Source: Candidatus Woesearchaeota archaeon
Lineage (GTDB): Archaea; Nanobdellota; Nanobdellia; Woesearchaeales; JAZDKJ01
NCBI GenBank assembly: GCA_043815525.1
Contig: JBDRIZ010000050.1
Span: 1-35,910, forward strand
Length of the DNA stretch: 35,910 bases
Direction: 5' to 3'
Within the stretch, counting starts at the first letter, position 1. Each line of letters starts with the position of its first letter. The translations under genes were made by a program, and so were the position numbers. This document shows positions 1 through 34,857 of this stretch, piece by piece. The notes under the pieces are model-generated. The model worked only from the letters and a program-made list of their open reading frames with translations. It was not told where the DNA came from and did not search any database.

Positions 1-174
1 AGTGTGCATGTGTCAGTTCCTGTGCAGACTGCAAAAACCTGTGGCAGTGCTGCTATTAGCGCTATAAGCAAGAAAACAGCCCTCTTTTTTGCCATTATAG
101 AGGGAATCCTGGTTTACTCATATTTATATTTATTGAAAAAAGCTTCTGAAAACATAAAAACTTATATATTGTGA
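1..174 (+). CDS. possible 3' end of an upstream CDS (C-terminal hydrophobic helix)
   Basis: Frame 1 is open from the window edge for 57 codons up to TGA 172-174. The tail reads ...CGSAAISAISKKTALFFAIIEGILVYSYLYLLKKASENIKTYIL, a hydrophobic helix flanked by lysines. No start is visible and the last codons overlap the AT-rich promoter of the next gene, so coding status is uncertain. Confidence 0.3.
   Translation, partial: SVHVSVPVQTAKTCGSAAISAISKKTALFFAIIEGILVYSYLYLLKKASENIKTYIL
161..170 (+). promoter_or_regulatory. TATA-like box heading the first operon
   Basis: cttatatatt is preceded by an A-run (cataaaaa, BRE-like) and ends 28 nt upstream of ATG 198. No properly spaced SD is present. This fits an archaeal-type leaderless or short-leader start. 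Confidence 0.45.
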
Positions 175-197
175 TTTTTTTAGGTAATCACGGGGAT

Positions 198-821
198 ATG
201 GCTAATCAAAAAGATTTGAGGACTATCAGCAATCTTCAGATTGGTCCGGATTATGTCCTTGTTCATGCTAACACAAAATTCTACCCTAAAGACACTGTCT
301 ATTATGCAGCGTATGTGTTCCTTGACAGGGCACACGTGATTCTGGATGGAGATCCTGAGAAAGTTATTCTCGTTGAGCTTAGACCTAAAGACACCAAGAA
401 TCTGGAAGATCTTGGCAGGGAATTCAATAACGAGATGTTAAGCCACTTAGTATACAAGCAGCAATATGAGATGAATAAGGATGCCCGCGACGCAGTCTTC
501 CAAGAGGTGTGTGCAGGAGTTGAAAGTAGTGAAGTTCCTATTTGCAGCAGCCATGAGGATTTACAAGTATGTAATGAAACTATTGGAGAGATGGACTACA
601 CAAAAGATCCGCTTGGCATAGCAAGGCCGTGGGAAGAAGTGCATGGTAAAATTGAGGAAGGGACTGATAACAATCCACAGTACAGTTACCTGGATGATCC
701 TCTTGGTATAGCAAAGCCGTGGGAAGAGCAGCCCGGCAGGATTCTAAAAGACGAAGGTAATGATGACATGGCAAGTACTGAAAAGTCAGGCAATCATTCT
801 GCTGATGAAAAAAAGAGCTGA
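198..821 (+). CDS. hypothetical protein: ~130-aa N-terminal domain plus acidic tail with two DPLGIA[RK]PWEE repeats (candidate substrate or carrier of the rSAM system)
   Basis: The ORF track gives 171..821 (GTG). ATG 198 (MANQKDL...) fits the TATA spacing better. The N-domain reads ...YYAAYVFLDRAHVILDGDPEKVILVELRPK...EFNNEMLSHLVYKQQ... The C-terminal tail holds two 30-aa repeats. The stop overlaps the next gene start by 17 nt. Confidence 0.8.
   Translation: MANQKDLRTISNLQIGPDYVLVHANTKFYPKDTVYYAAYVFLDRAHVILDGDPEKVILVELRPKDTKNLEDLGREFNNEMLSHLVYKQQYEMNKDARDAVFQEVCAGVESSEVPICSSHEDLQVCNETIGEMDYTKDPLGIARPWEEVHGKIEEGTDNNPQYSYLDDPLGIAKPWEEQPGRILKDEGNDDMASTEKSGNHSADEKKS
594..773 (+). repeat. in-frame tandem duplication, 2 x 90 nt (30 aa)
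   Basis: Unit 1 is DYTKDPLGIARPWEEVHGKIEEGTDNNPQY and unit 2 is SYLDDPLGIAKPWEEQPGRILKDEGNDDMA. The cores at 606-638 and 696-728 are 29/33 nt identical by hand alignment. Confidence 0.8.
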
Positions 822-1701
822 TGTGAAGATAGGGTTTGTCTGCAACAACAACTGCAGGTTCTGTGTGCAGGCGCATAAAAAGCAGTTTGGCAACAGGCCT
901 CTAAGTGATATTAAAAAAGACTTGGAGCTTGCCCGGAATAATTGTGAGGAGGTTGTTTTTACAGGCGGTGAACCGACAATACGTTCTGATATCCTTGACC
1001 TCGTGCGCTTTGCAAAATCTCTTGGTTACACTCAAATTCAGATACAATCTAATGGCCGTAGGTTTGCCTATCCAGGGTTTTGTAGGCAGATAATCGCCTC
1101 CGGAGCAACTGAGTTTGCACCTGCTCTGCACGGCCACTCTCCCAAGCTGCACGATTTTCTTACAGGTAGCACTGGCAGCTTTGACCAGACTGTGGCAGGC
1201 ATAAAAAATTTAAAGTCGTTGGGGCAGAGGGTTATCACAAACACTGTTATTGTCAAGCCAAACTACCGTTATGCCGAAAATATTGCAGAGCTTCTTGTAA
1301 GCCTTCGCGTTGACCAGTACCAGCTTGCTTTTGTGCATCCTATCGGACACGCTATGAAGAACTATGATTCTATTGTGCCTTCTGTAAGCCTCGCAGCACC
1401 TTTTGTGCAAAGGGGCCTTCAGGTAGGTATCGGTTTAGGGATGAGTGTGATGGCAGAGGCGATGCCCTTCTGCACAATGAATGGTTACGAGAGCTATGTC
1501 TCAGAGCTTGTGATTCCGGATACTGAGATAAGAGACCTGCAATATGACCCTGATTACAAGAAGACGAGAAAAACCGAGGGAAAGCAGAAGTTCTCTCAGT
1601 GCAAATCTTGTATTTATGATGGAAGTTGCGAGGGCCCGTGGAAAGAGTATCCTGAGAGAATGGGTTCTGACGAGTTTACCGCAGTCAAGGGGGTGTGTTA
1701 G
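805..1701 (+). CDS. radical SAM protein, small paralogue family (long type)
   Basis: The ORF track gives 760..1701. ATG 805 gives MKKRADVKIGFVCNNNCRFC, matching the paralogue N-termini. Motifs: CX3CX2C (CNNNCRFC), FTGGEPTIRSD, LHGHSPKLHDFLTGSTGSFDQTVAGIKNL, MPFCTMNGYE, CKSCIYDGSCEGPWKEYPERMGSDEF. Confidence 0.9.
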   Translation: MKKRADVKIGFVCNNNCRFCVQAHKKQFGNRPLSDIKKDLELARNNCEEVVFTGGEPTIRSDILDLVRFAKSLGYTQIQIQSNGRRFAYPGFCRQIIASGATEFAPALHGHSPKLHDFLTGSTGSFDQTVAGIKNLKSLGQRVITNTVIVKPNYRYAENIAELLVSLRVDQYQLAFVHPIGHAMKNYDSIVPSVSLAAPFVQRGLQVGIGLGMSVMAEAMPFCTMNGYESYVSELVIPDTEIRDLQYDPDYKKTRKTEGKQKFSQCKSCIYDGSCEGPWKEYPERMGSDEFTAVKGVC

Positions 1702-1926
1702 GTGGCTTGGAAGTGCGACAAGTGCGGCAACACAGAAAGCTTCACTGAAGTCAACACTGTCAACACGCATGTTACCCAGGATAAGAATTCCACACGGATA
1801 TTGAAGATAAATAACATTTACAGGAAGGAGGGGGCACTCAATGTCTGGTGCAACAAGTGTGACAGCGAGGATGTGTCATGGGTTGAACTCACTGACCAGG
1901 ACTCTTCATATCTTACCAGGAGTTAG
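1702..1926 (+). CDS. small Zn-ribbon-like protein (74 aa)
   Basis: A GTG start directly abuts the TAG of the previous gene. The protein has CDKC near the N-terminus and CNKC about 41 residues later (CxxC...CxxC) and an acidic C-terminus. It sits inside the translationally coupled operon. Confidence 0.6.
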   Translation: MAWKCDKCGNTESFTEVNTVNTHVTQDKNSTRILKINNIYRKEGALNVWCNKCDSEDVSWVELTDQDSSYLTRS

Positions 1927-1931
1927 AATGC

Positions 1932-3956
1932 ATGACCAAGGTTGCTGTTGTCGCGTGTGATGGATATGATAAAGTAGATTTGGCCATTGGTCGCGCAATC
2001 AGCCTTCTTGGAGGCATAAACGCTTTTGTTAAAAAGAAGCAGAAAATTTTGATTAAACCAAACTTGTGCGATCCGTTGCCTCCTGACAAGGCTGCAACTA
2101 CTCATCCTGAAGTTGCAAAATCTGTTATTGGAATTGTACTGGGGACTGGTGCAACCCCTGTTGTTGGCGAGCTTTCCGCAGGCAGCATACCTGGCAGGAC
2201 TGAAGAGGCTTTTGTTGCCACAGGCATGAAAGACGTCTGCGCTTCCACAGGGACAAGACTTGTTGATTTTCAGAAAGGTAGCTTTGTTCAGCAACATATC
2301 AAGGAGTATCTATTCCTTGAGAAAACCGACTTTGCAGAAGCTGTCCTTGACTCAGATGCAATAATCAACCTTCCAAAGCTAAAGACTCACGGTGCATGTT
2401 ACCTCACTGGTTGCGTAAAGAATCTTTTTGGGTGTATCCATCCTGAAGAGAGGGAGTATATTCATTCGCATGGTGAGAACTCCCTCAACAATGGTGTGGT
2501 GGATATTTTTTCTGTTGTCAAGAACAAGGTGGTATTGAATATTATGGACGCAGTAGTTGCAATGGAGGGTGATGAAGGCCCAAGCTACGGCAACCCAAAG
2601 AGGTTGGGTTATATTATTGCTTCCACCGATGCTGTGGCAGCAGATGCTGTCGCAGCGAAAATTACAAATCACAATCCAATGGAGATACCGATAATAAGCG
2701 ATTGCCATCACCGCAGGCTTGGCTGCGGCATCCTCAATGACATAGAAATCGTCGGAGATGGCTTTCGCCAGGTGCTTGATTTCAAGGTCCACACAAACTA
2801 CCTAAACAGGCATGACAAGGATAAAAAATCAAGGCTGCAGCCAGTAATTACATCTGCCTGCACGAGATGCTCTGCTTGCGAGAAGAGCTGCCCTGCTCAG
2901 GCGATTTCCTATAGTGATGATAAGGCAAGGTTTGAAATCGACCAAATAAAGTGCATCAAGTGCTATTGCTGCCTCGAGGTGTGCATCTTTGCGGCAATAA
3001 AGCTTGAGACTTCTGCGAGGCCAGCAGACCTTATTCGCCTCGGCCTAAACTGCAACCACAAGTGCCTGTTCTGCACTGTTGGTTTGGACAGGACTCCTGA
3101 TCTGTCCACAAAAGAGGTAATGAACCTCATCGATGTTTTGGCTGCGAATGGTTCGCAGAAACTTGCTTTTACCGGCGGAGAACCAACTTTGAGGCCTGAC
3201 CTTTTTGCTCTGGTGGCATACGCACGATCAAGGGGGATTAAGATAATTGAGTTGCAGACCAACGCTTCAGAAATTTCCAAAGCAGGCTATGCAAAAGCAA
3301 TAACTGACGCTGGAATCAGCCATTTCATGGTCGCCCTGCACTCGGACAAGGAAGAGGTTTACAACAAGCTTACACAAAGCAGGCATTTCAAAAACGCTGT
3401 TGGAGGAGTAAAAAATCTGCTTAAGTTTCCTGTAACAATAACAATTTCGCATGTGATAAATTCAGAGAACTATAAGGGCCTTGAGTCGTTTGTCAATTTT
3501 GTGCATTCAGAATTTCTTGCAAAACCATGCATTTATTTTGGTTTTGTGAGGCCGAATGGCACTGCAAAGGCAAACAAGTGGATTGTTCCAAAGATGAGCC
3601 TTGTCGAGCCATACCTGCATAAGGCTTTTGCAAAATGCGCAGCTCTTGGGATTGTTTTCATGGTTGAGGGTTTGCCTTTATGCTACATGCAGGGTTACGA
3701 GCAGCATAACGACGAGACAAGGCGCCTGCTCTGTTCTCCGGCTGTGCATCTCGAGGCAGGTGTTGTAAGAGATGACACTCATAAGAGGCATCTTGTGGAC
3801 AATAAAGGAGAGGCAGAGTGCTGCGATGTCTGCAGCCTGTCCAAACTGTGCCCGAGAGTCTGGAAAGAGTATTCTGACATCTACGGGACTGGCGAGCTTT
3901 TTCCTGTATTTGACGAGAAACTAAAGGATAGTCTGAAGGTGTTTTTCAGTGGTTGA
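1932..3956 (+). CDS. tri-domain fusion: DUF362 + 2x[4Fe-4S] ferredoxin + small-family radical SAM
   Basis: The N-terminus has DUF362 hallmarks: KVAVVACDGYD, ILIKPNLCDP...ATTHPEV, LPKLKTHG...TGCVKNLFG, DAVVAMEGDEGPSYGNP. The ferredoxin motifs CTRCSACEKSCP and CIKCYCCLEVC start at nt 2859. The rSAM core has CNHKCLFC (nt 3051-3074), FTGGEPTLRPD, LPLCYMQGYE and CDVCSLSKLCPRVWKEY. AGGAG lies 9 nt upstream of the ATG. Confidence 0.92.
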   Translation: MTKVAVVACDGYDKVDLAIGRAISLLGGINAFVKKKQKILIKPNLCDPLPPDKAATTHPEVAKSVIGIVLGTGATPVVGELSAGSIPGRTEEAFVATGMKDVCASTGTRLVDFQKGSFVQQHIKEYLFLEKTDFAEAVLDSDAIINLPKLKTHGACYLTGCVKNLFGCIHPEEREYIHSHGENSLNNGVVDIFSVVKNKVVLNIMDAVVAMEGDEGPSYGNPKRLGYIIASTDAVAADAVAAKITNHNPMEIPIISDCHHRRLGCGILNDIEIVGDGFRQVLDFKVHTNYLNRHDKDKKSRLQPVITSACTRCSACEKSCPAQAISYSDDKARFEIDQIKCIKCYCCLEVCIFAAIKLETSARPADLIRLGLNCNHKCLFCTVGLDRTPDLSTKEVMNLIDVLAANGSQKLAFTGGEPTLRPDLFALVAYARSRGIKIIELQTNASEISKAGYAKAITDAGISHFMVALHSDKEEVYNKLTQSRHFKNAVGGVKNLLKFPVTITISHVINSENYKGLESFVNFVHSEFLAKPCIYFGFVRPNGTAKANKWIVPKMSLVEPYLHKAFAKCAALGIVFMVEGLPLCYMQGYEQHNDETRRLLCSPAVHLEAGVVRDDTHKRHLVDNKGEAECCDVCSLSKLCPRVWKEYSDIYGTGELFPVFDEKLKDSLKVFFSG

Positions 3957-4776
3957 CTTAGGCATTGGAGACAGATGCAACAGCAGTTGCATAATGTGCA
4001 CAACAGTGAGGCCAGAGGACAAAAAGGTGGAGAACCGCATGCTCTCAAAGGAAGAGGTCTTTTCGATGATTGACAAAATGGAGAGGCCACCTTACATAGC
4101 TATCACAGGTGGCGAGCCTACAATAAGAAAAGACTTAACCGAGATAGTAGGTCATGCCAGAAATCGTTTTCCAGCTGCAGAGATAAAGCTTTTGACAAAC
4201 GCCAGGATGGCCAGCTATCCTGACTACGCAAACGACTTGCTCAGCACAGGTATTGATGTGTATATAATCCCTTTGCACAGCCATCACCCTGACCTTCATG
4301 ATTTTGTAACAAGGACAAAAGGAAGCTTTGTTCAGACCGTACAGGGCATCAGGAATTTATCAAAGGCAAAGATCGAGATAAGGATAGTCATCCATGGGAT
4401 TAACTATCCATTCCTTCCAGAGACTGCAGAGTTCATCAGGGATAATTTCCCCGGCGCCTCGGTTGTTATGATTTATTTTGACATAATTGGCAGCGCATTC
4501 ATCAACAGGGATCGGCTTGTTGTGCAGATGACCAGGATAGCACCTTATCTCGAAAAGGCTATTGATGTCTTGCAGCAGAATGACATCCATACCTATCATT
4601 TTCCTTTATGCGTCCTTGGCCTGCGCTACCGCGATAGTGCCAAAGGTGTGACTGTTGTTGGTCACAGGATAATGTTCGCAGACAGTTGTGCAGCATGCAG
4701 CATGAAGTCTAAGTGTTGCGGGATTTGGAAAGCTTATGCAAAGCTGGTCGGTACCGGAGAGTTCAAGCCAATATGA
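3949..4776 (+). CDS. radical SAM protein, small paralogue family (short type)
   Basis: The GTG start overlaps the upstream stop by 8 nt. Motifs: CNSSCIMC, ITGGEPTIRKD, LHSHHPDLHDFVTRTKGSFVQTVQGIRNL, FPLCVLG, CAACSMKSKCCGIWKAYAKLVGTGEF. Confidence 0.9.
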   Translation: MVDLGIGDRCNSSCIMCTTVRPEDKKVENRMLSKEEVFSMIDKMERPPYIAITGGEPTIRKDLTEIVGHARNRFPAAEIKLLTNARMASYPDYANDLLSTGIDVYIIPLHSHHPDLHDFVTRTKGSFVQTVQGIRNLSKAKIEIRIVIHGINYPFLPETAEFIRDNFPGASVVMIYFDIIGSAFINRDRLVVQMTRIAPYLEKAIDVLQQNDIHTYHFPLCVLGLRYRDSAKGVTVVGHRIMFADSCAACSMKSKCCGIWKAYAKLVGTGEFKPI

Positions 4777-6137
4777 AACGAGTTGTTTTGGTCTGGCCTT
4801 TTGACCACTGCCACTCGCCTAGCCTTTCTCTTTTGTACCAGGCAAAGATATTGAATGGTTCCTATGATGTTTCCGTTGTTTATTCAAACCAGCTTTTCTC
4901 TTCTGATAATCTTAGTCTGCCTCTTGAGGTGCAAGAAGAGCCTGAGCGTAGCCTAAAAAAGGTTGCAAGCGTGGTTGCCAAGCTGGATCCTGATTACGTA
5001 TGCATCGGAAGCTACAGGCAGCACACTCCTTTTATTGACAGGTTTGCCAAGCAGTTCCGGATGCAGCATGATGCTGCCTTGATTGCAACCGGCTATGTCC
5101 CGACATTTTCTCCAGAGGAGATGCTTTCTTTGACACCTGAGATTGAATTCATTCTTCGCGGCGAATCTGAGCGCTCGCTTAAGAATTTGTTGGACAGTCT
5201 TTCCAAATCACAAAGTCAGTCTGAAGTGAAAGGGCTTTCTATGAAAAAAGATGGAGTCTTCCATCACAACCCGACCGACAGAATTGAAGATTTGGATTCA
5301 CTGCCTTTGTTTGATTTTGAGGATATTGTGGGAAACAGGCCAAAAAGGATTGACATCCGCTCTTCTCTGGGTTGCATTATGGACTGCCGCTTCTGCGGTC
5401 TTCACAAGATGTGGCCAAGGCCTGTCAGGTATCATAGCGAAGATTATGTGCTTCGCCAAATCAAGCATCTGGACAGCCTGTATTCCATGGAGTTTGTGCA
5501 TTTTATAGACGAGATGTTTCTCTGTAATGTCAAAAGGGCAGAGTCTCTTGCGCAAGCCATCCACAGGAATTTTCCTTATCTTAAATGGGGTTGCATGTTC
5601 AGAAATGATACAGTTAGCGAGTCTGTAGCAAGCCTGCTGAAAGATTCTGGCTTGGTTAACGCAGCTGTTGGAGTGGAATCCAACAACCCAAAGGTGTTGC
5701 AGTTCCTGCAAAAGACCAAGTCGCCATCCAGCTACCTCGCAGGCATTAACAAGAATATTGACATGCTAAAGGAGAAGCTTGAGTTCCTTGAGTTGGGTTT
5801 TATCACAGGCACTCCTGTTGAGACTGCGTCAGACATCCTTTCGCTGATTGAGTTTGTGCAGGATATTAAAAATGACAGGAAAGAGCTGAAGGACCTGAGG
5901 ATAGCGCTTGGAAGGCTTGTCATCTACGCAGGTTCGGATCTCTATTCAAGAATTGGTCAGTTCAACATGGTCAAGGATGAGATGAGGTATTCTGCATACC
6001 AGAAATTCTTCGAAGCAGGCTATGACCGCTTGTTCTGGGCTGTTCCGTGGAACTATCTTGCAGAAAATAAGAACTTCAGGAGCCATGCAGACTACATGGA
6101 GATTCTATCCAAAGCTTTCGAGGCTGCAAGAACATGA
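4773..6137 (+). CDS. B12-binding-domain-type (class B-like) radical SAM protein
   Basis: The ORF track gives 4713..6137. ATG 4773 forms an ATGA overlap with the upstream stop (MKRVVLVWPF...). The N-terminal Rossmann-like region carries RGESERSLKNLLDSL, followed by SSLGCIMDCRFCGL (CX3CX2C) about 215 aa in. Confidence 0.88.
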   Translation: MKRVVLVWPFDHCHSPSLSLLYQAKILNGSYDVSVVYSNQLFSSDNLSLPLEVQEEPERSLKKVASVVAKLDPDYVCIGSYRQHTPFIDRFAKQFRMQHDAALIATGYVPTFSPEEMLSLTPEIEFILRGESERSLKNLLDSLSKSQSQSEVKGLSMKKDGVFHHNPTDRIEDLDSLPLFDFEDIVGNRPKRIDIRSSLGCIMDCRFCGLHKMWPRPVRYHSEDYVLRQIKHLDSLYSMEFVHFIDEMFLCNVKRAESLAQAIHRNFPYLKWGCMFRNDTVSESVASLLKDSGLVNAAVGVESNNPKVLQFLQKTKSPSSYLAGINKNIDMLKEKLEFLELGFITGTPVETASDILSLIEFVQDIKNDRKELKDLRIALGRLVIYAGSDLYSRIGQFNMVKDEMRYSAYQKFFEAGYDRLFWAVPWNYLAENKNFRSHADYMEILSKAFEAART

Positions 6138-7024
6138 GCGAGGCATTCATCAAGCTTGACTTCCGCTGCAACCAGGAGTGCCTGTTCTGCTGCACCTCTG
6201 ATGACAAGGACTCGCTTTCAGCAGAAGAGGCAAGGAATCTTATCGCGAAGTACGTTAATGACATGGGTTACAGAACAGTTTGTTTTACTGGCGGAGAGCC
6301 CACCTTAAGGCCTGACCTGCCAGAGCTTGTGAGTTATGCAAAAAGCCTGTCAGCAGAGGTAAAGTTGCAGACTAACGGATCGCTCTTGTATGACAAAAAG
6401 ATAGCTAGCCAATTAGTCGACGCTGGCGTCACAAGGGCTCTTGTGTCAATCCATTCTCATAAGGATGAAATAAACGATTTTATCACCAACACACCCGGTA
6501 GCCTGCAAAAGTCTCTTTCCGGCATACAGAATCTGCTCGAGTTAGGAGTTGATATTCATCTCGCATATGTAATCACCAACCAGAATATCGAACTCACTGA
6601 CTTTGTGAGGTTTGTTAAGTCCAGGTTTCCTGTAATCAACTTCTTTTTGTTTTTTTTGCCATATCCTTTGGCACGTGGCTGGCGCAATCGCCAGTACGTG
6701 CCTAGACTTGGGGATATTGAAAAAAACCTTTCCGAATTGTACGGCTACTGCAAATCAAAAGGGATTGGCTTCTCAACGCGGGGAATTCCGCTCTGCTACA
6801 TGGCTGGCTTCGAAAATCACTCTTCTGAAACTCAAGCTTTGATGTCTGAGGAAAAGCCGATGGTCATTAACGACTATGAGGTGCTTGAGCCAAAGCACAG
6901 CTTTGAAGAAACAAACGTAAAGGATGATTGCTGCAAATTTTGTGCTGTGAACGACTGTTGCGGCGGTGTCTGGAGATACTATCCTGACATTCACAAACAT
7001 CAATTATGGCCGGTGGTGAGATGA
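6134..7024 (+). CDS. radical SAM protein, small paralogue family (short type)
   Basis: ATGA overlap with the upstream gene. Motifs: CNQECLFCC, FTGGEPTLRPD, IHSHKDEINDFITNTPGSLQKSLSGIQNL, IPLCYMAGFE, CKFCAVNDCCGGVWRYY. Confidence 0.9.
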   Translation: MSEAFIKLDFRCNQECLFCCTSDDKDSLSAEEARNLIAKYVNDMGYRTVCFTGGEPTLRPDLPELVSYAKSLSAEVKLQTNGSLLYDKKIASQLVDAGVTRALVSIHSHKDEINDFITNTPGSLQKSLSGIQNLLELGVDIHLAYVITNQNIELTDFVRFVKSRFPVINFFLFFLPYPLARGWRNRQYVPRLGDIEKNLSELYGYCKSKGIGFSTRGIPLCYMAGFENHSSETQALMSEEKPMVINDYEVLEPKHSFEETNVKDDCCKFCAVNDCCGGVWRYYPDIHKHQLWPVVR

Positions 7025-15301: not shown

Positions 15302-15302
15302 C

Positions 15303-24333: not shown

Positions 24334-24408
24334 TGTAGTTCCAGTTTGAAGTATTGTATATAATTTTTGCTTAAGGTATATATAATAGCAGATTTACTCC
24401 AGCAATTG
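24334..24408. promoter_or_regulatory. divergent promoter region with two back-to-back TATA-like boxes
   Basis: tgtatataatttt (24355-24367) reads as aaaattatataca on the minus strand, 22 nt upstream of ATG 24333. gtatatataata (24376-24387) lies 22 nt upstream of ATG 24409. Neither start has an SD. Confidence 0.5.
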
Positions 24409-25968: not shown

Positions 25969-26116
25969 CCATAAGTCAGGTGTGCTTTTGAACTCTGCAT
26001 TGATTTCCACGCTGTACGCTTGCTTCCTTCCACGCCTGGTTAGGAGAGGAAAAAAGCTGTACCAGTTGGAATTCTGCAGCTTGTCTGCCTAGTAATGTGT
26101 GTAACATTACCTAAAT

Positions 26117-26130
26117 GCTTATATACATTT
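26117..26130 (+). promoter_or_regulatory. TATA-like box
   Basis: gcttatatacattt ends 18 nt upstream of ATG 26149. No SD is present. Confidence 0.45.
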
Positions 26131-26148
26131 TTCCAATCACTCTTTTGA

Positions 26149-27267: not shown

Positions 27268-28610
27268 GGGTCTGCCTGGTTTATCCGAAATTCAAGTATG
27301 CCTGCGGAGACCCTCCCTTAGGTATTCTGTACATTGCTGCTTATCTGCGCCAGCATGAAATTCCTGTTTCAGTGATTGACACTACATTTAATCCTTCGAT
27401 TTATTTTGTTAGGCAAAAGTTGTTTGATCTGAAGCCAGGAATCGTTGGAATCTACTGCGACACCATGATGTATAATGACTGCCTGAGTATTGCTGCCTTG
27501 GCAAAATCAGTTAATGCAAATGTAATTGTTGGAGGTCCGCACGCTGCAGTGGCTCCTGAGACTTTGATAATGGACAGGAATGTTGACAGTGTATGTGTTG
27601 GTGAGGCAGAACTTACTATGCTTGATTATGTCAAGGCATTGCAGAAAGGCGCTAGTCTTTCGTCTGTTGATGGCATCTGGCACAAGAGCGGCAAGGCTGT
27701 TGTTAAGAACAGGCAGCGCAAGCCAATACAAGATTTGGACAGCCTTCCGTTCCCTGCAAGGGACTTGATTGATTTTGAGAGGCATATTTCGAACTGGTAC
27801 CACTTCAGCCATGTTTCAGGCATTCGAGGCACTTCAATCCTTGCCTCGAGGGGCTGTGTATTCTCGTGCTCCTACTGCCAGCCAACCCTTGACAGGATTT
27901 TTGGGAAAGGGCTAAGGCACAGGTCTCCTGAGAATGTCGTGCAAGAGCTTTTGCAATTGCATAAAATTTACAAAATTAACGCCTTCCATCTTCAGGATGA
28001 TACAGCAACAGTCTCAGATGGCTGGCTCTTTGATTTCTGCAGGCTCATGAGCAGGAAGAATTTTGTTTGGTCATGCAACTCCAGGATTGACACGCTTAAT
28101 GAGGAGAAGGTTATTGCGATGAAGAAGGCTGGTGTTAGGGAGATATATCTTGGAATCGAGAGCGCTTCAGACAGGATTTTGAAGGAAATCTACAACAAGA
28201 CCGCCTCAATAGACCCAAAAGATGCAATCGACATTCTGAAGAGGCATGGATTGAGGGCATTGGGGTATTTCATGCTTGGCGCTCCGACAGAGACATATGA
28301 CGAGGCTGAGTCAACAATCGATTTCGCAGTCAAATCTGACTTGGACATGGCCACTTTTTCAATCTCTACCCCTTTTCCTGGCACCTACATGCACAGCGCT
28401 TTTGTCAGGACTGGTTGTTTTCATGATTTTTCAGAATATGACTACTACCGCTCGAATAAGCACAATATCTCTGAAATACCTGGACGTGATCTGGAGCTGT
28501 TGAAGAGAAAAGCTTACCTCAGGTTTTACCTGCATCCAAAAAGGGTTGGAGGCACTCTGTCTGAGCTAAGGCAGCTTGGCAAGGTCTTGTTAAAGCTTAA
28601 GAGATTTTAG
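27264..28610 (+). CDS. B12-binding-domain-type (class B-like) radical SAM protein
   Basis: ATGA overlap with the upstream gene. Motifs: MRVCLVYPKF...PPLGILYIAAYLRQHEIPVSVID, VIVGGPHA, CVGEAELTMLDYVKAL, ASRGCVFSCSYCQP, YLGIESASD. Confidence 0.92.
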   Translation: MRVCLVYPKFKYACGDPPLGILYIAAYLRQHEIPVSVIDTTFNPSIYFVRQKLFDLKPGIVGIYCDTMMYNDCLSIAALAKSVNANVIVGGPHAAVAPETLIMDRNVDSVCVGEAELTMLDYVKALQKGASLSSVDGIWHKSGKAVVKNRQRKPIQDLDSLPFPARDLIDFERHISNWYHFSHVSGIRGTSILASRGCVFSCSYCQPTLDRIFGKGLRHRSPENVVQELLQLHKIYKINAFHLQDDTATVSDGWLFDFCRLMSRKNFVWSCNSRIDTLNEEKVIAMKKAGVREIYLGIESASDRILKEIYNKTASIDPKDAIDILKRHGLRALGYFMLGAPTETYDEAESTIDFAVKSDLDMATFSISTPFPGTYMHSAFVRTGCFHDFSEYDYYRSNKHNISEIPGRDLELLKRKAYLRFYLHPKRVGGTLSELRQLGKVLLKLKRF

Positions 28611-29244
28611 GTATAGCTATATTTGCGAATTGTACCTCATCTCTTAAATTCTGGCTGCCATTATTTTTGTTGAATCCTGCTATGTCAAAGATTTGGACTG
28701 AGATTGTTGCGTTTGTCTTAAGCATTTTTGCAGGTAGTTCAATCTCAATATAATCTGGCCCTGAGTCAATTCCCAGTCCGGCAATTGTTGCTGGCGCAGG
28801 CTTATTTCCAATATGCTTCCAGACGTATATTCTTGAGTTTGGGATTATCCTTATCTGGTGGTTTTCCTGTCCGAATATGTATAATTCGTATGCAAGCTGG
28901 TCATTTAGGTAGCCGTATGTTGTGAATTTTATGTATGCCTTGTCTTTGTCATTGCTGTAGTACAGGTCTTTTAGGTCCGCCCCCATGTAATCCAGTTTTG
29001 CATCTCCTTTTGGGCTTGTGGCAATCGGCTCTATCCCTGTCCAGTCAATGTCCAGGTTTGAAAAAGCGTCTGTCAATGCCTCTTGGTCTCCAAATTGAGT
29101 TGCTTGGCCTGTAATCGTTTTGTCATGTTTGTCGGTTCTTACTTTGGCAAGCAGGACCAAGGCAAGTATTGCCACTGCAACAACCAGCACAAGTTTACCC
29201 CAGTGTTGTTTGCTGTGATGAGCCAGTTTCTTTTTTCCGACCAT
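28597..29244 (-). CDS. signal-anchored extracytoplasmic protein, paralogue family A (4 of 4)
   Basis: The ORF is open to 29364 (TTG). ATG 29244 gives MVGKKKLAHHSKQHWGKLVLVVAVAILALVLLA, a short tail plus TM as in the paralogues. Blocks: ADLKDLYYSNDKDKAYIKFTT and YELYIFGQENHQIRIIPNSRIYVWKH. The 3' end overlaps the convergent rSAM gene by 14 nt. Confidence 0.75.
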   Translation of the reverse strand: MVGKKKLAHHSKQHWGKLVLVVAVAILALVLLAKVRTDKHDKTITGQATQFGDQEALTDAFSNLDIDWTGIEPIATSPKGDAKLDYMGADLKDLYYSNDKDKAYIKFTTYGYLNDQLAYELYIFGQENHQIRIIPNSRIYVWKHIGNKPAPATIAGLGIDSGPDYIEIELPAKMLKTNATISVQIFDIAGFNKNNGSQNLRDEVQFANIAIPKIS

Positions 29245-29368
29245 AATAAGTGGAGTCAACTTTTTTGGTGCTACGCATACAACTTGTAGGTTTTCCTCCT
29301 CGCGAAGTCTTTGATGAGGAAAACCGTTAGTGCGCTTATCAGCAAACAGTTGATTTATCCCCAATAGG

Positions 29369-29404: not shown

Positions 29405-30421
29405 ATGGACTCAAAAAGCCGTGTCTTTGCTGTTCTTGAAGGAAATCTTCCTGACAGGGTTCCAGTCTTCCCTGTGGTCGATGAGTATCACGCGCCAAAA
29501 GTTCTTGGCTATGCTGCAAAGGATTGCCTTGTTGATGGAATGAAGATGGCAGAAAGCCTGTTGGCAGCTCTTCGCCTCTATAAGTATGATGGGATTATTG
29601 CCAATCTCGGTCCTGGAAGAGACCCATACAAACAGCTCGGCTGCACAGTTGATCTTGACAGTGGTGACGTAGCGCTTTTCACAGATAATTTAGTTAAAAG
29701 TGAAGAAGACCTGTCAAAGGTTGTGCCACCAGATCTTTTCGGAACAGGCATGCTTGCTCCTGTTCAGCATATCTTGGATAAGGTTGGTGACACTCATTTT
29801 GTTGTGGGGTCTGTGCGAGCTCCTTTTGAGATATCTTACATACAAAGAGGTTCCATGGCCTTCATGTCTGACATTTATGAGAATCCTGGATTTGTCTGTA
29901 AAATGATTAATGTGGCAAAGAAAATCACTCTTGCTCTTGGCGATGCTTTGATTGAGTCAGGAGTCCATGCCCTTGTCGTTAAGGATTCAGTTGCCTCTGC
30001 CTCTATGATATCGCCAGAGCATTACAGTGAGTTTGCTTTCCCTCTTGAGCAGGAAGTAATCAGCCATTTCAGGAAAAAAGTGCCTGTCATCCTTCACATC
30101 TGCAGGAATTCAGAGCCTTTGCTGCAGAAGATGGCAAAGACTCGTGCATCTGTACTGGAAATTGACTCGCTTGTTGACCTGGCAAAAGCAAAAGATCTTG
30201 TTGGCAACAAGGTGGTTATCAAGGGAAATGTTGATTCTGTCGAAGTGCTCGAGAGAGGCAGCACAGAAGTCATAAGGAGATCTGTCGCGAACTGCATGAA
30301 TGCTGCAAAAGCACATGGTAACTATATCCTAAGCACAGGCGATTCTGTACCTAGAGGTTGCAGTATGGATAGTATGAAGAGCTTTGTTGGTCATGGCAAG
30401 GTGCTGGGTCGATATGGATGA
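29405..30421 (+). CDS. uroporphyrinogen-decarboxylase-fold methyltransferase (MtaA/CmuA-like corrinoid-dependent methyltransferase)
   Basis: The N-terminus SRVFAVLEGNLPDRVPVFP is typical of the MtaA/URO-D family. An H231-x-C233 ... C319 pattern (VILHICRN ... VPRGCSMD) matches the HxC...C zinc motif of MT2-type enzymes. Confidence 0.88.
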   Translation: MDSKSRVFAVLEGNLPDRVPVFPVVDEYHAPKVLGYAAKDCLVDGMKMAESLLAALRLYKYDGIIANLGPGRDPYKQLGCTVDLDSGDVALFTDNLVKSEEDLSKVVPPDLFGTGMLAPVQHILDKVGDTHFVVGSVRAPFEISYIQRGSMAFMSDIYENPGFVCKMINVAKKITLALGDALIESGVHALVVKDSVASASMISPEHYSEFAFPLEQEVISHFRKKVPVILHICRNSEPLLQKMAKTRASVLEIDSLVDLAKAKDLVGNKVVIKGNVDSVEVLERGSTEVIRRSVANCMNAAKAHGNYILSTGDSVPRGCSMDSMKSFVGHGKVLGRYG

Positions 30422-31044
30422 ATGATCTCATTAATGCAATAATTGCTGGAGAAAGACAAAAGGCAAAGGCAATCACTGAGTCAATTATTGAAGAGGATTC
30501 TGCGTACGAGATAATCACTAACTCCATATCTAAGGCAATGGAAGTTGTAGGCCAGAGGTACGAGACAGGGGAATACTTTATCCCTGAAATGATTCGTTCT
30601 GCAAAGTGCGCTGAACTTGCTTTTTCTATACTGAAGCCGCATATTAGATTGGAGTCGGTTCAGGAGGGAAAAAAGGTTGTCATCGGAACTGTTAAGGGAG
30701 ATGTCCACGATATTGGCAAGAATATCATGAAATCTGTTCTTGAATGCTCAGGGTTTACAGTGTATGACCTTGGTGTGAATGTCCATCCAAAGCAGTTTAT
30801 TGATAAGATTATTGAAACAGGCAGCACCTTGCTGCTCCTCTCCGCCCTTACAACTGCGACAAGTCTTGCCATGCAGGAGGTCTTGTCCGAATTGGTAAGG
30901 CTTGGCATGCGTGAGAGGGTGAAGGTTCTTGTTGGGGGGGTTTCTGTTAGCGAGTCGTTTGCCAGGAGTATTGGCGCTGACTATTATGGAAGTTCGATTA
31001 AGGAGACTTTGGAGTTTTGCAAAAGTGTGCCTAATTCTGTTTGA
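30418..31044 (+). CDS. corrinoid (cobalamin-binding) protein, MtaC/MtbC-like
   Basis: ATGA overlap with the upstream gene. An N-terminal helical cap is followed by a Rossmann B12 domain with DxHxxG (DVHDIG, aa 95-100, nt 30700-30717), SALT (SxL) and VLVGGVS (GG). Confidence 0.9.
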   Translation: MNDLINAIIAGERQKAKAITESIIEEDSAYEIITNSISKAMEVVGQRYETGEYFIPEMIRSAKCAELAFSILKPHIRLESVQEGKKVVIGTVKGDVHDIGKNIMKSVLECSGFTVYDLGVNVHPKQFIDKIIETGSTLLLLSALTTATSLAMQEVLSELVRLGMRERVKVLVGGVSVSESFARSIGADYYGSSIKETLEFCKSVPNSV

Positions 31045-32281
31045 TTATCCATTTCCAGGCTGGGATTAGTGTTATTGTGCCTTCGTCACTTCTTATTTCT
31101 CTCTCATCTTTCTTGGTGATTAGTAATGCCTCTTTTTGGTTGAAATTCCTCATGAATTCCCTTAATGGCTTAAGGTCTTCCTTGCTGATAGTCTCTTGAT
31201 ATTTTATCTCTATTGGCAGATGGTTGTGGATTATGTCAACTTCATTTCTGTTCTTGTAAAAGCTTGTCGCTTTCAGGTGGTTTATTGCCAGAGTCTCGAC
31301 CATTCGTCCAAAAAAAGCGCTGTCAATGCTTGTTTTGTAGAGAGTAATAATCGCATTGTCAGAGGGATAAGCTCTTTTTTTCTTTCGAAGCGTTGTGATA
31401 TTTCCTGTCCGATAGTTTCCCAGCACTCTTATCAGGAAGCTTTCTTTCAGAAAAGAGATATAATCCTTTATCACTCTCCTGTCTTTGTCAAATTGTCTGC
31501 TTAGCGATTGGTAGTCAATGTACATTCCTGGATTCGCAGCTATCAATTCCAGAAGCACTGTCAGGAATTGTGGGTCTTCTATCTTGAATAATTTTGGGAT
31601 GTCTTTGTAGATGATTTTATCTACCACCAATGTGCTGATGTATTGCTTGTAGTCTTTGTCGCTTTCAATGTCAAAAGTCTCAGGGAATCCCCCTCTTTCA
31701 ACATACTTTATGAACAAAGGCTTGATCCTTGTTTCATATTTTGTGTCTTCTATTTTGCTGAGTCTGAGATACTCCTTGAAGCTGAAAGGTTCTAGGTGAA
31801 AATGGAAAATCCTTCCTGCCAGTGTTTCGCTTGTTTTTTTCCTTATAAAAAGCGATTCTGAACCGCTTATCATGAATTTGATTTTTGGGTAGAGGTCGTA
31901 ATATTTCTTTAGCTCGTTCTCCCAGTTGTTGCATTTCTGTATCTCATCCAGGAAAACATATGTTTTTTCGCTGCGAAAATCCTTGTTTTGAATTTCCTTG
32001 TATGTTTCCAGAACCTCGCTGAGCCCTGCTGAGATATCATCAAAGGAGAAGAATAGTATATTTACCGGAGGAGTATTTTCCCTCAAGAGATGTTCGATAA
32101 CCTGGTAGATTATTGTGGTTTTGCCTATGCGCCTGAGCCCCACTAGGGAGATTATGAATCTCTTTCTAAGATGTTTTTCGATTTCTTTGTATATATCTCT
32201 CTTGAATTGGAGGGCCAGGTCAGGGTCTACGCGTCCTTTTATCCACCAGTGGTTGAACTCCTCCAGTCTTCTGTTTTCCAT
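31031..32281 (-). CDS. AAA-type ATPase with DUF4143-like C-terminal domain
   Basis: The Walker A motif is LVGLRRIGKTT and the Walker B-like motif is YVFLDEIQ. The C-terminal region reads ...ETLAINHL...EVDII..., as in the AAA_14/DUF4143 family. The 3' end overlaps the corrinoid gene by 14 nt. Confidence 0.9.
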   Translation of the reverse strand: MENRRLEEFNHWWIKGRVDPDLALQFKRDIYKEIEKHLRKRFIISLVGLRRIGKTTIIYQVIEHLLRENTPPVNILFFSFDDISAGLSEVLETYKEIQNKDFRSEKTYVFLDEIQKCNNWENELKKYYDLYPKIKFMISGSESLFIRKKTSETLAGRIFHFHLEPFSFKEYLRLSKIEDTKYETRIKPLFIKYVERGGFPETFDIESDKDYKQYISTLVVDKIIYKDIPKLFKIEDPQFLTVLLELIAANPGMYIDYQSLSRQFDKDRRVIKDYISFLKESFLIRVLGNYRTGNITTLRKKKRAYPSDNAIITLYKTSIDSAFFGRMVETLAINHLKATSFYKNRNEVDIIHNHLPIEIKYQETISKEDLKPLREFMRNFNQKEALLITKKDEREIRSDEGTITLIPAWKWIIKQN

Positions 32282-32420
32282 TTTAAGTACATCATAATGT
32301 ACATATTTATAAAACTTGTGGTCATGCTGATGTACATATTCCGCACATGCAAGCTGAAGTATTTGGCAAGGCTCTTGACCTGCATAAGTTTAATAACATT
32401 ACAAAACTACCGTAGCTGAT
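32282..32420. promoter_or_regulatory. divergent promoter region
   Basis: The minus strand reads ttttataaatat (32304-32315) about 22 nt upstream of ATG 32281. On the plus strand, aagtttaataacatt (32386-32400) lies 20 nt upstream of ATG 32421. Confidence 0.45.
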
Positions 32421-33947
32421 ATGAACATCAAGCTTCTCCTTGCCCCTGATTTTATTCCGCGGACCAAGTTTGCCTTGCCTCCGATGGGCATTGCCTCCAT
32501 TTCCGCAATGTTGAGGAGTGATGGCCATAAGGTTGAACAGGACGACCTGGACATCAAGTCGAGGAATATCGAATTATCTGTTTTCTCAAGGACAGATGAA
32601 ATCGAGCGCTATTTGTTGAAAAACAGTTCTTTTCCAGAACTTGAGCATACTCTTGACTCTCTCCTCAACCTCACCAGGACGAAAGGTTTTGACGTTTTTG
32701 GCCTTTCTGTTGCAGAGCCTTCCCATCTTGTTGCTGCTTTGTGCCTTGCAAAAAGGATTAAGGACCTGACAAAGGCGATTATTGTGATTGGTGGCAGGGT
32801 CTCAATTAGCCAGTCTTTGCTCAGGTACGGATTTATTGATTATGTTATCACCGGTGACGCAGAGCATTCGTTCTCTTCTCTTTTGCGCTGCCTCGAAGGC
32901 AAATCCAGTCTGCAGAATGTTCCTGGTTTGGCCTATAGGGATACTGCAGTAAAGCAAAATCCGGTTGTCCAAAGTGACTTGGAATCAATCCCTGCTCCTG
33001 ACTTTGAAGGCCTGCCAATTGAACTGTATTGCCATAACGCCTTTGACACTGTTGACCCTTACTATGAGACATACAACAAGCCTTTCCCGCTTGGCTCAGA
33101 TTCCAAGGTTTTGATGCTGCCGTACCTTCTCACCAAGGGTTGTAGTTTCTCGTGCTCTTTTTGCGGTGTTTCAGCCTCAAAAAAACAAAGCATATTGTAT
33201 AAGAGCGCTGAAAAGATTGCAGCCGAACTTGATAGTTTGAAGAAGAAATACAGGACAAGATATTTCTTTCTTATGGACAGCACCCTGAACTGCAGTTATA
33301 AGTGGCTTGAAGATGTGTGTGGCAAGATTAGTTCAGCTGATATCTTGTGGTCTGACTCTGCGACTCCCATGCACTTTCCTGCAGGCCTTCTCAGGAAGAT
33401 GCGCTCTGCAGGCTGCGTTAGGCTTACCTGGGGTGTTGAGTCTTTGTCAGATCCCATTCTGAAAAAGATGAGTAAGCCATTTACTGCAGAAATCGCAAAA
33501 TCCACCTTGAAGGACTCACATGATGCAGGCATCTGGAACTACACAAACTGGGTGGCTGGATTTCCGCACGAGACTGAGTCTATGCTTAACGAGACGCTAG
33601 CAAATATAAGAACCAGTAAAGCCTGGATAGATGACTACACTGTCACAGGCTTTATTTTGCAGCAGTCAGAAATCTACAACAGTCCGCAGAAGTATTGCAT
33701 TAATATTGGCGCAAAGTCTTCCTATCTTGACTCTGCAAAGGACAGGATGGAGACCGATTCCTTTGATGAGATTGGCGGCCTTTCATGGAAAGATAAGCAG
33801 AAGCAGATTGATGATTTTAGGCGAAGAATGGTGGCCGCTCTTGGCAATAGCTTGAATCCATTGCCAATGCATACTGTGTTTTACCTTTATGACAAGTTCC
33901 ATGATAAGGAGAGTGTACTGTCATGGCTTAGGAGTATAGGCTTATGA
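32421..33947 (+). CDS. B12-binding-domain-type radical SAM protein (subfamily trio, member 3)
   Basis: Motifs: MNIKLLLAPDF...PPMGIASISAMLRSDGHKVEQDDLDIK, TKGCSFSCSFC, ILWSDSATPM, FDEIGGLSWKDKQK. Confidence 0.9.
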   Translation: MNIKLLLAPDFIPRTKFALPPMGIASISAMLRSDGHKVEQDDLDIKSRNIELSVFSRTDEIERYLLKNSSFPELEHTLDSLLNLTRTKGFDVFGLSVAEPSHLVAALCLAKRIKDLTKAIIVIGGRVSISQSLLRYGFIDYVITGDAEHSFSSLLRCLEGKSSLQNVPGLAYRDTAVKQNPVVQSDLESIPAPDFEGLPIELYCHNAFDTVDPYYETYNKPFPLGSDSKVLMLPYLLTKGCSFSCSFCGVSASKKQSILYKSAEKIAAELDSLKKKYRTRYFFLMDSTLNCSYKWLEDVCGKISSADILWSDSATPMHFPAGLLRKMRSAGCVRLTWGVESLSDPILKKMSKPFTAEIAKSTLKDSHDAGIWNYTNWVAGFPHETESMLNETLANIRTSKAWIDDYTVTGFILQQSEIYNSPQKYCINIGAKSSYLDSAKDRMETDSFDEIGGLSWKDKQKQIDDFRRRMVAALGNSLNPLPMHTVFYLYDKFHDKESVLSWLRSIGL

Positions 33948-34857
33948 GCAGCGAAATGTTTCGCCAGCCGAAAAGGTTTGACGTACAGCTGGGGTATGGT
34001 TGCGATAATAAGTGCGTTTTCTGCTGTGTTGGTTTTAGGGACAAGAGAAAGAACAAGTCTGCAGGAGAGGTTCTTGAGTCTATTGCCAAAGCAAGGTTAA
34101 ATGGCGCAAAAAAGTGTGCTTCTCAGGAGGCGAGCCTTTTTCAAGGCCTGATATTGCAGAGTTGATTGCTGCAGCAAAAAATGAGGGCTTTTCTGATATT
34201 TGGGCAATCAGCAATGGTCGCATGCTTTCAAAGCAGGGCTTGGCGAAGAAGGTTGTCCAGGCAGGCCTGACAGGTATTTGCATAAGCTGCCACAGTTCCT
34301 GCAAGGATTTGAACAATTACCTCGCAGGCAAAAAGGACAATTTCAGGAAAGTGAAAAATGCATTGGCAAACCTCAGGCAGTACAAGATCAGGATTTCCAG
34401 CAATACTGTCGTAATGAAATCAAACTGCACAGAGCTTGCTCAAATAATTGATTTTCTAATCAGGAACGGTGTAAACGCTTTTTCCTCTCTGGTTTTTGTC
34501 ATGCCAAGCGAGAATGCCTGGCTGAACAGATGGCGGCTTGTTCCAAGGGTATCGTCTGTCATTCCATACGTCATTGAGGCCATAAATTTTGGTAAGAGCA
34601 AGGGTTTCTTGGTAAATACAGAAGGTTTTCCTTTCTGTTTGCTGCAGGGTTATGAAAACCATATTTCTGAGTTTGCCATGCCATTGGAGTGGTCTTCTGA
34701 TACTCCTGAGAGTTTCCATTCCGACCACTTGCAGCACATAAGGGATGGCAAGGCAAGAAGTGAGGAGTGCGGCAATTGCCTGTATAATAGTCAGTGCGGT
34801 GGCATCTGGGTCAACTACGCAAAGATTTATCCTTTGGATGAGTTTTGTACTCGCTAG
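33944..34857 (+). CDS. radical SAM protein, small paralogue family, split by a -1 frame change (33944..34165 plus 34114..34857)
   Basis: The first frame carries FDVQLGYGCDNKCVFCC and ends early at TGA 34163-34165. The second frame carries CFSGGEPFSRPD, CHSSCKDLNNYLAG, FPFCLLQGYE and CGNCLYNSQCGGIWVNYAKIYPLDEF. The frames join on gcAAAAAAGtg (34108-34114). Either a -1 slip or one extra A restores ...NGAKKVCFSGGEP... Confidence 0.8.

Follow-up and report, generated by a model that had tools for sequence, protein, structure and literature searches.

The contig JBDRIZ010000050.1 of a Candidatus Woesearchaeota archaeon (assembly GCA_043815525.1), analysed here over its whole 35,910 bp and called the window below, encodes what is probably a greatly enlarged and rearranged member of the wider Hxs kind of radical S-adenosylmethionine (rSAM) protein-maturation systems, a reading to which we give a probability of about 0.62. 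Many-step radical maturation acting on an exported or envelope protein is the best-supported account of its content. In Escherichia coli, HxsA is matured by HxsB, HxsC and HxsD, and HxsC binds HxsD; in the course of maturation the N-terminus is processed and an SHRSS motif undergoes a +8 Da change, and the mature HxsA effector, acting in the periplasm, keeps phage DNA from entering, which makes HXS an anti-phage defence in that host (Li et al., Nat Commun 2026, PMC13128918). In the survey of the same authors, 99.7% of HXS systems were found in Pseudomonadota, almost always as four genes (PMC13128918). The locus described here is unusual because it lacks both the substrate of that system, HxsA, and HxsB.

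About 36 genes lie on the contig, which belongs to a metagenome-assembled genome (MAG). The map of open reading frames (ORFs), Pfam scans and a motif scan found 18 PF04055 Radical_SAM domains, each with CX3CX2C, in twelve small proteins of 275–327 amino acids (including one that forms the C-terminal part of a DUF362–ferredoxin fusion) and six large ones of 448–533 amino acids with an N-terminal B12-binding region, exactly as the initial annotation had counted them. It had also called the motifs intact; all 18 are there, but the twelfth small gene, as assembled, is split into 33944–34165 and 34114–34857 by a 1-nt frameshift at an A6 run (34108–34113), so that either the homopolymer was misread in sequencing or the gene is a (recent) pseudogene. 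When the small enzymes other than this frameshifted one were compared against 18,950 NCBIfam models, the best match of every protein was HxsC (TIGR03977) or HxsC4 (NF038332, 'rare HxsC4'). HxsC was the top model for 3949–4776 (178.7 bits) and 7962–8798 (172.9 bits), with a cut-off of 267.9, and HxsC4 for the others (82–171 bits, cut-off 500). In a motif check, 12 of 12 small rSAMs retained CNxxCxFC, GGEPT, and PxC with CxxCx5CxGxW; the four extra cysteines of the latter are consistent with one auxiliary cluster. The protein of 3949–4776 is the nearest in the window to canonical HxsC, with 26% identity over 267 residues to the HxsC of Aeromonas. The twelve enzymes share 25–41% pairwise identity among themselves, as against 43–73% with their counterparts in other contigs, so that each small paralogue appears to be an old orthogroup.

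The first gene of the locus (198–821, plus strand; listed from GTG 171, with ATG 198 as the likely start) points the same way. It had been described as a repeat-bearing gene; the repeats are real, being two copies of a tail motif, DPLGIARPWEE at 606–638 and DPLGIAKPWEE at 696–728 (both plus strand), and the gene can now be identified as HxsD-like. It matches TIGR03976 HxsD with E 2.8e-9 and 37.2 bits (cut-off 50) over profile positions 3–87 of 90. No match was obtained in the Pfam copy used, and the newer Pfam family PF27806 HxsD was present in 59 of 59 homologues of the gene, one of them 88% identical. An alignment of 25 homologues (A1) showed a conserved N-terminal domain, a variable acidic linker and one to three copies of an invariant [YF]xxDPxGIxxPW motif, whose D, P, G, I, A, P and W columns do not vary from DPANN archaea to bacteria. 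The tail peptide of the window protein, with its two DPxGIxxPW copies, reads YLDDPLGIAKPWEE. In an AlphaFold2 model, residues 8–110 are mostly predicted at pLDDT >90 and the tail at about 50, as expected of disorder, which would give a folded N-terminal domain of about 110 amino acids, a disordered acidic linker and a tail, the tail being about 90 amino acids long. A fold search of the model against the PDB gave nothing significant (best E 0.013, to small alpha+beta proteins such as Rpb11, Pcc1 and type III secretion chaperones), and the protein cannot be assigned to the PqqD-type fold because no solved structure matched significantly; we therefore rejected the idea of a PqqD-like recognition element. 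We also rejected a tie between the number of tail copies and the loss of HxsA and HxsB, since protein P0127 of locus L085 has two copies together with HxsB. Another homologue, P0125 of L084, has three tail-motif copies and is followed by an HxsD_rel-like gene.

Tail-type HxsD proteins turned out to mark a wide family of related loci (numbered L here). Counting one genome per species, they were found in 71 species-representative genomes, hosted by DPANN archaea (Woesearchaeota, Nanoarchaeota, Aenigmarchaeota, Micrarchaeota, Undinarchaeota, Altiarchaeota and Iainarchaeota), by Myxococcota (Polyangiaceae) and Binatia, by other Deltaproteobacteria-type lineages and by one Elusimicrobia genome; a tail-type locus of Patescibacteria came from a separate look-up. 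These loci were profiled with models derived from genes of the window and, for HxsB and HxsD_rel, from two verified proteins; the HxsB proteins of L007 and L008 score 496 and 503 bits on TIGR03978 (cut-off 370), and HxsD_rel (NF038315, which with HxsC4, NF038332, is the NCBIfam model for parts of tail-type loci) scores 69.9 bits (cut-off 41). HxsB lies within 10 kb of the tail-type HxsD in 65 of the 71 loci, and a leader-bearing HxsA adjoins HxsD in at least 31. The initial annotation had held that the locus resembles no characterised pathway and has no characterised relative. Neither statement survives, given the HxsD-like first gene, the HxsC and HxsC4 matches of the small rSAMs, the bona fide HxsB of the related loci, the HxS-repeat HxsA of many of them, and the published function of HXS (PMC13128918). 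HxsC-like domains occur in 50 of the 71 loci, at least three in 29 and at least five in seven, with a maximum of eight by a conservative, overlap-free count within 20 kb; the twelve of the window are the largest number, compared with at most eight within 20 kb elsewhere. A literature search found no paper on archaeal, Candidate Phyla Radiation (CPR) or multi-HxsC Hxs variants, and no viral contig was found to carry the system.

In many DPANN and CPR loci (among L010–L080) an HxsA-like precursor lies typically about 2.3 kb downstream of HxsD, with a leader LPKIKKKISSFLxxEEGKISKQS, a hydrophobic segment and then HxS repeats or a His/Cys-rich core. This leader family has apparently not been described previously. 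A six-frame scan and a leader profile together yielded 41 HxS-repeat ORFs and 38 leader matches in the related loci; examples are L016 12225–12617, L029 7979–8491 and L013 2079–2504. The cores vary, from HxS repeats to short His-rich ends (THAHHASY) and very Cys-rich regions.

The gene order of the window is itself conserved. Locus L001, on a 57.7-kb contig, is collinear with positions 7006–18030 at 43–72% identity and also contains five B12 rSAMs interleaved with HxsC-like genes, together with DUF483, SGNH hydrolases and a tetratricopeptide repeat (TPR) protein. For most of the small paralogues, reciprocal-best comparison gave orthologues in L001, L004, L005, L017, L019, L026 and L036, those of rSAM 1 sharing 72–73% identity in L005 and L081 and 57–60% in L019 and L036. 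Of these, L036 is a complete tail-type locus in the closed genome of Ca. Fermentimicrarchaeum limneticum (CP058998.1). Since an orthologue (52%) of the B12-type rSAM at 22888–24333 lies inside the L001 cluster, the right-hand third of the window belongs to the same system. At the left, a head module of tailed HxsD, an HxsC-like enzyme, a zinc ribbon of 72–74 amino acids and a DUF362–ferredoxin–rSAM fusion defines a subtype, which recurs in L005/L006 and L086/L087 (one population) and in L081/L082. The subtype is rare: a metagenome scan for it added just two contigs, both of the L005 population. The density of rSAM genes is far beyond chance, and the same order recurs in independent contigs; the claim of one coherent rSAM and cobalamin modification locus is borne out by this conserved order and by the one-to-one orthologues.

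Among the accessory genes, DUF483 bears on how the two enzyme classes belong together. Its domain has four near-invariant or invariant cysteines, GYPxCC...CSxxC (alignments A2 and A3), and 482 relatives among 1.84 billion representative proteins. The best 150 of these 482 include 11 fusions to HxsC-like rSAMs and two to B12 rSAMs, fusions that tie the HxsC-like and B12 enzymes together and indicate that DUF483 works with both. Protein P0190 (842 amino acids) has two tandem DUF483 domains behind one HxsC-like domain, and in P0212 and P0315, of about 1,020 amino acids, DUF483 stands at the C-terminus of B12 rSAM proteins. An AlphaFold2 model of DUF483 (pLDDT 86.9, pTM 0.87) gave no fold match in the PDB, nor did its sequence match any PDB entry; a likeness to NleE was too weak to be of use. 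DUF362 falls in Pfam clan CL0471 together with the lactate racemase LarA, and the 674-residue DUF362–Fer4–rSAM fusion also occurs in L022, where it adjoins a canonical HxsD-HxsB-HxsA set and where DUF483 is found too. Homologues of the zinc-ribbon protein are few, a handful among 5.8 billion sequences; seven homologues share 67–79% identity with it across the full length, and its gene always stands after the orthologue of rSAM 1. We considered it as a precursor and find this unlikely, because conservation from end to end resembles that of a folded subunit.

The six large rSAMs have the features of Class B enzymes, a B12-binding region N-terminal to a CX3CX2C core. PF02310 exceeds its gathering score in four of the six, and the two proteins at 4713 (26.9 bits) and 24367 (20.6 bits) are below the cut-off of 32.1; all six match B12-rSAM NCBIfam families, none at an equivalog cut-off. 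Three of them (19335, 24367 and 32421) form a subfamily with weak matches to C-methyltransferases of ribosomally synthesized and post-translationally modified peptides (RiPPs; TIGR03975, 73–105 bits, cut-off 281.85). A corrinoid activase-like protein (166 bits on AcsV, cut-off 800) lacks the N-terminal ferredoxin domain, and its gene overlaps that of B12 rSAM 5 by 4 nt (26149–28610), which suggests that the activase serves this enzyme directly. Domain and NCBIfam scans found no MT1-type methyltransferase with the MtaA-like and corrinoid protein genes at 29405–31044. The MT2-like protein (the MtaA-like methyltransferase), the corrinoid protein and the activase-like protein all score below cut-off; the corrinoid trio is confirmed at the family level only, and the genes fall short of a corrinoid methyltransferase system of Mta/Mtb/Mtg type.

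The window shares with canonical HXS an operon headed by a small HxsD-like protein, rSAM enzymes that are homologues of HxsC and have a second, C-terminal cluster besides the SAM cluster, and a product expected to act outside the cytoplasm; true HxsB and HxS-repeat HxsA are found, moreover, in the loci related to it. The canonical hxsD-B-C-A locus of an Aeromonas plasmid, however, encodes an HxsD of 96 amino acids without a tail and one HxsC of 401 amino acids with an N-terminal extension of about 110 amino acids, whereas the window has twelve HxsC-like enzymes, none so extended, and an HxsD with a long disordered DPxGIxxPW tail. Unlike canonical HXS, it also adds six B12 rSAMs, DUF362–ferredoxin, DUF483, the zinc-ribbon protein and envelope enzymes, and its host is an archaeon. 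With neither HxsA nor HxsB and no HxsC at the model's cut-off, the window stands outside the four-gene HXS system. With the tail-type multi-HxsC loci of DPANN, CPR, Myxococcota and Binatia it shares the invariant HxsD tail, HxsC-like orthogroups (57–60% to L019 and L036) and genes for DUF483, DUF362–Fer4(–rSAM), B12 rSAMs and GT-C. Those loci, though, keep HxsB (65 of 71), often HxsD_rel, and the leader-bearing HxsA, in whose place the subtype of the window has the HxsC-like enzyme, the zinc ribbon and the DUF362–rSAM fusion. Proteusin-type RiPP clusters, such as that for polytheonamide with its rSAM epimerase and B12 rSAM C-methyltransferases, likewise combine several rSAM and cobalamin rSAM enzymes. 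Unlike them, the window has no NHLP- or Nif11-type precursor in any ORF scanned, its small rSAMs are HxsC-like, and the scores are far under the cut-offs. As in the pyrroloquinoline quinone and mycofactocin pathways, a small chaperone-like protein, rSAMs and an extremely conserved short peptide motif occur together, but here the motif sits on the chaperone itself, and the PqqE and MftC models reach only 40–67 bits, below their cut-offs.

The mechanism that we propose would make the HxsD-like protein an adaptor hub, with a folded N-terminal domain and a disordered tail bearing two copies of DPxGIxxPW. Each of the twelve HxsC-like enzymes, with a SAM-cleaving cluster and one predicted auxiliary four-Cys cluster, probably catalyses its own radical step on a protein or peptide that all of them share, while the six B12-type rSAMs probably add methyl groups or related changes and would be served by the corrinoid activase, the MtaA-like methyltransferase and the corrinoid protein. 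The DUF362 domain and two-cluster ferredoxin fused to an HxsC-like enzyme form a likely electron inlet, and DUF483 may act as a four-Cys partner domain for both enzyme classes. The product would be exported and finished at the envelope, because anchored SGNH hydrolases, a GT-C protein, a TPR protein and anchored family A proteins are present. Candidate substrates are the HxsD tail, Cys-rich proteins of a divergent operon described below, the anchored family A proteins, and an HxsA encoded elsewhere in the genome. A role in defence may be proposed by analogy with E. coli HXS alone. No PADLOC model covers the Hxs system, the PADLOC models registered only generic viperin-core similarity for the window rSAMs, and an AAA_14/DUF4143 ATPase and a HepT/MNT pair on the contig would suit a defence neighbourhood without demonstrating it.

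Several observations weigh against an Hxs-type maturation of a protein and temper our confidence in it. The HxsC and HxsD scores are all under the curated NCBIfam cut-offs, and the small rSAMs are without the N-terminal extension of canonical HxsC, because in every stand-alone one CX3CX2C sits only 10–28 residues from the listed ORF start. The solved structures nearest to them by sequence are BlsE and a tetraether synthase, which act on small molecules and lipids. Six-frame scanning for HxS repeats and an HxsA-leader profile found no HxsA in the 35.9 kb; nor does this sequence hold HxsB, the best ORF reaching 24.7 bits against the HxsB profile, or HxsD_rel, and the closest relatives of the subtype (L005/L006, L086/L087 and L081/L082) are likewise without all three within 10 kb. 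A precursor hidden in the gaps at 12529–12765 and 25969–26148 was sought, and none of the small ORFs there was convincing; no substrate could be identified in the window. The chemistry of canonical HxsC is known only as a +8 Da change (PMC13128918). The SGNH, GT-C and corrinoid genes, finally, would fit a glycan or lipid target equally.

It is on these points that the rival explanations draw. The window may be the accessory half of a split canonical system, with HxsA and HxsB elsewhere in the genome and the contig adding tailoring enzymes for an HxS-repeat effector. A Micrarchaeia MAG has just such an arrangement, HxsD-HxsB-HxsA lying on L033 (JAVZHX010000001.1) apart from four to five HxsC-like genes and DUF362–ferredoxin on L004 (JAVZHX010000004.1), so parts of these systems can sit apart in a genome, and the genome of the window is represented by one contig. 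Yet the window has its own HxsD at the operon head, and in at least three populations the head module stands in place of HxsB and HxsA, which are absent from the 10-kb flanks; a split is an alternative to be taken seriously, with perhaps one chance in a few. The enzymes might instead tailor a non-protein envelope component, a scavenged lipid or glycan, their homology to HxsC and HxsD reflecting ancestry only. This would explain why no protein substrate was found, would suit the BlsE and tetraether synthase likeness, and would give a place to the anchored SGNH hydrolases, the GT-C glycosyltransferase and the TPR protein within the operons, GT-C homologues also adjoining HxsC-like genes in L006, L028 and L038. 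It has to contend with the HxsD-like protein at the operon head and with the occurrence of the same orthogroups beside HxsA peptides in archaea and bacteria, whose lipids differ, and we think it improbable. The tetraether lipid synthase model Tes (NF045702) scores at best 67.2 bits in the window against a cut-off of 450, and neither the tetraether nor the proteusin comparison of the initial annotation found specific support. Of the two options which that annotation had favoured, the better supported is stepwise modification of a peptide or protein, linked to the envelope, rather than modification of an envelope lipid or glycan.

A different possibility is that the HxsD tail is itself the substrate, its DPxGIxxPW core being modified into a peptide-derived product or cofactor while the HxsD domain serves as leader or chaperone. 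The motif, which does not vary between DPANN and Myxococcota, ends a disordered linker in one to three spaced copies as in multi-core precursors and is missing, with the whole tail, from canonical HxsD, and the subtype of the window has no other recognisable precursor. Most tail-bearing loci nevertheless encode a separate HxsA precursor, so these loci have no need of the tail as a substrate; its copy number is independent of the loss of HxsA and HxsB, and strict invariance of so short a motif fits docking at least equally well. We regard conversion of the tail as rather improbable. A chimeric assembly, or unrelated rSAM genes gathered by chance, might be suspected from a shift near 11 kb in GC content (about 0.45 to about 0.40) and from the mixed gene orientation and unrelated defence-type genes of the right-hand third. 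The collinear L001 orthologues cross that shift (7006–18030), which argues against an assembly join; the head module is kept in L005, L081 and L087, the orthologue of 22888–24333 sits within the L001 cluster, and family A, B12-subfamily and HxsC-like paralogues occur on both sides. The comparison with syntenic loci therefore gives a chimera no support, and we consider it barely conceivable. The Hxs-type maturation system admits a bolder form, a radical 'assembly line' in which the tail of the HxsD hub recruits a dozen rSAMs to a client, or is itself converted, and in which the subtype without HxsA and HxsB is a distinct system; this we offer as a speculation, with the odds well against it.

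As to the gene map, two co-directional blocks of overlapping or abutting genes, 198–12528 and 12766–20897, make up most of the locus, and TATA-like boxes precede the starts at 198, 24409, 26149 and 29405 by 29–35 nt, both as initially read. The remaining non-rSAM genes (SGNH, GT-C-like, TPR, the corrinoid trio and others) also proved to be what had been proposed, by domain scans. In the first block (all plus strand), the HxsD-like gene is followed by HxsC-like rSAM 1 (760–1701, probable start ATG 805; PF04055 81 bits, HxsC4 157.9 and HxsC 114.7 bits), the 74-residue zinc-ribbon protein (1702–1926; CxxC...CxxC, weak TFIIS/TFS zinc-ribbon matches), the fusion of DUF362, a 2x[4Fe-4S] ferredoxin and HxsC-like rSAM 2 (1932–3956; PF04015 178.5 and PF04055 73.9 bits, with Fer4 matches), rSAM 3 (3949–4776; HxsC profile positions 31–290 of 292), B12-type rSAM 1 (4713–6137, probable start 4773; PF04055 50.1 bits, BchE/PhpK-like NCBIfam matches), rSAM 4 (6134–7024; Pfam and NCBIfam), rSAM 5 (7006–7968, probable start 7021; a 67% orthologue at the start of L001) and rSAM 6 (7962–8798; a 58% orthologue in L001). 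Then come a membrane-anchored SGNH/GDSL hydrolase (8735–9742; Lipase_GDSL_2 29.4 bits, under the cut-off, with a hydrophobic N-terminal segment), rSAM 7 (9708–10643, probable start 9735; HxsC4 171.2 bits, orthologues of 70–72% in L001 and L002), a second anchored SGNH/GDSL hydrolase (10643–11632; a 55% orthologue in L001) and the DUF483 protein (11629–12528; PF04467 26 bits).

A gap of 237 bp at 12529–12765 separates the two blocks; it has TATA-like elements near the 12766 start only, and no convincing ORF or Rfam match was found in it. The second block, also on the plus strand, comprises rSAM 8 (12766–13662; a 61% orthologue in L001), family A anchored protein 1 (13659–14318; no family match), rSAM 9 (14318–15301; Pfam, NCBIfam and orthologue comparison), the TPR protein (15270–16148; TPR Pfam matches and an L001 orthologue at the equivalent position), rSAM 10 (16145–17104; a 61% orthologue in L001), rSAM 11 (17101–18030; Pfam, NCBIfam and orthologue comparison), an anchored protein weakly related to family A (18005–18793), a family A paralogue without an anchor (18803–19312) and B12-type rSAM 2 (19335–20897; Pfam and NCBIfam). 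The four secreted or anchored proteins claimed as paralogues are not equally close: a clear relationship joins 13659, 28597 and 18803 (E 2.5e-13 and 7.9e-15, the latter being the match of 18803 to the family A profile), but 18005 is related only weakly (16.8 bits on that profile).

To the right of the blocks lie the GT-C (PMT_2) membrane glycosyltransferase (20842–22560, minus strand; PF13231 34.4 bits), B12-type rSAM 3 (22888–24333, minus), B12-type rSAM 4 (24367–25968, plus, probable start 24409; Pfam and NCBIfam), the corrinoid activase-like protein of RACo/AcsV/RamA type (26149–27267, plus; PF14574 and PF17651), B12-type rSAM 5 (27264–28610, plus), family A anchored protein 2 (28597–29364, minus; a paralogue of 13659–14318), the MtaA/CmuA-like methyltransferase of URO-D fold (29405–30421, plus; PF01208 178.6 bits, TIGR01463 120.8 bits with a cut-off of 235) and the corrinoid, B12-binding protein (30418–31044, plus; PF02310 and PF02607, TIGR02370 150.9 bits with a cut-off of 215). 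The AAA_14/DUF4143 ATPase (31031–32281, minus; PADLOC candidate family PDC-S01, 219.8 bits) precedes B12-type rSAM 6 (32421–33947, plus; Pfam and NCBIfam) and the frameshifted rSAM 12 (33944–34857, plus), and the HepT/MNT toxin–antitoxin pair (34811–35185 and 35182–35703, minus) closes the right end of the contig. The ATPase and the HepT/MNT pair are insertions among the rSAM genes. In the middle of the contig, at about 11000–23000, the GC content falls from about 0.45 to about 0.40, and scans of the contig found neither tRNAs nor Rfam matches, nor any tandem repeat of relevance.

A Cys-rich secreted protein is encoded by a divergent gene, the first of a neighbouring operon, which the left end of the window cuts so that its first 31 codons remain (positions 95–1 on the minus strand, the gene being truncated at this edge; feature 1–95, translation MAKKRAVFLLIALIAALPQVFAVCTGTDTCT...). 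The N-terminus of this protein matches Cys-rich proteins of 424–428 amino acids encoded upstream of HxsD in L006 and L081. At that position these two loci have a divergent four-gene operon (L006 1763–9885 and L081 2–6085, both minus strand), whose products are the Cys-rich protein of 424–428 amino acids, a protein of 228–248 amino acids with a signal peptide and a C-terminal anchor, a Cys-rich protein of 1035–1200 amino acids with a thrombospondin type 3 repeat, and an anchored protein of 310–379 amino acids. The products of this operon are possible clients of the system. In L006, the rSAM genes are followed at 19468–20522 by a GT-C-like membrane protein and a HypF/NodU-like carbamoyltransferase, a pair that hints again at finishing of a glycan type.

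The locus is remarkable for its scale, its host and the absence of the usual substrate, and it is no longer without relatives. It widens the reach of Hxs to DPANN, CPR, Myxococcota and Binatia, where HxsC has multiplied into many conserved orthogroups in a radiation not described before, and a dozen specialised HxsC paralogues offer as many entry points to HxsC chemistry. The invariant HxsD motif, DUF483 as partner of both rSAM classes, and the conserved HxsA leader provide handles for experiment. If the assembly-line form of the system were true, it would act on a target that is not an HxS-repeat effector, the divergently encoded Cys-rich secreted proteins being one example, and ultra-small symbiotic archaea would possess a new class of envelope-protein maturation. 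With genomes of about 1 Mb, DPANN archaea have shed most of their biosynthesis; where such a genome devotes about 35 kb to 18 radical enzymes, their product must matter to the host.

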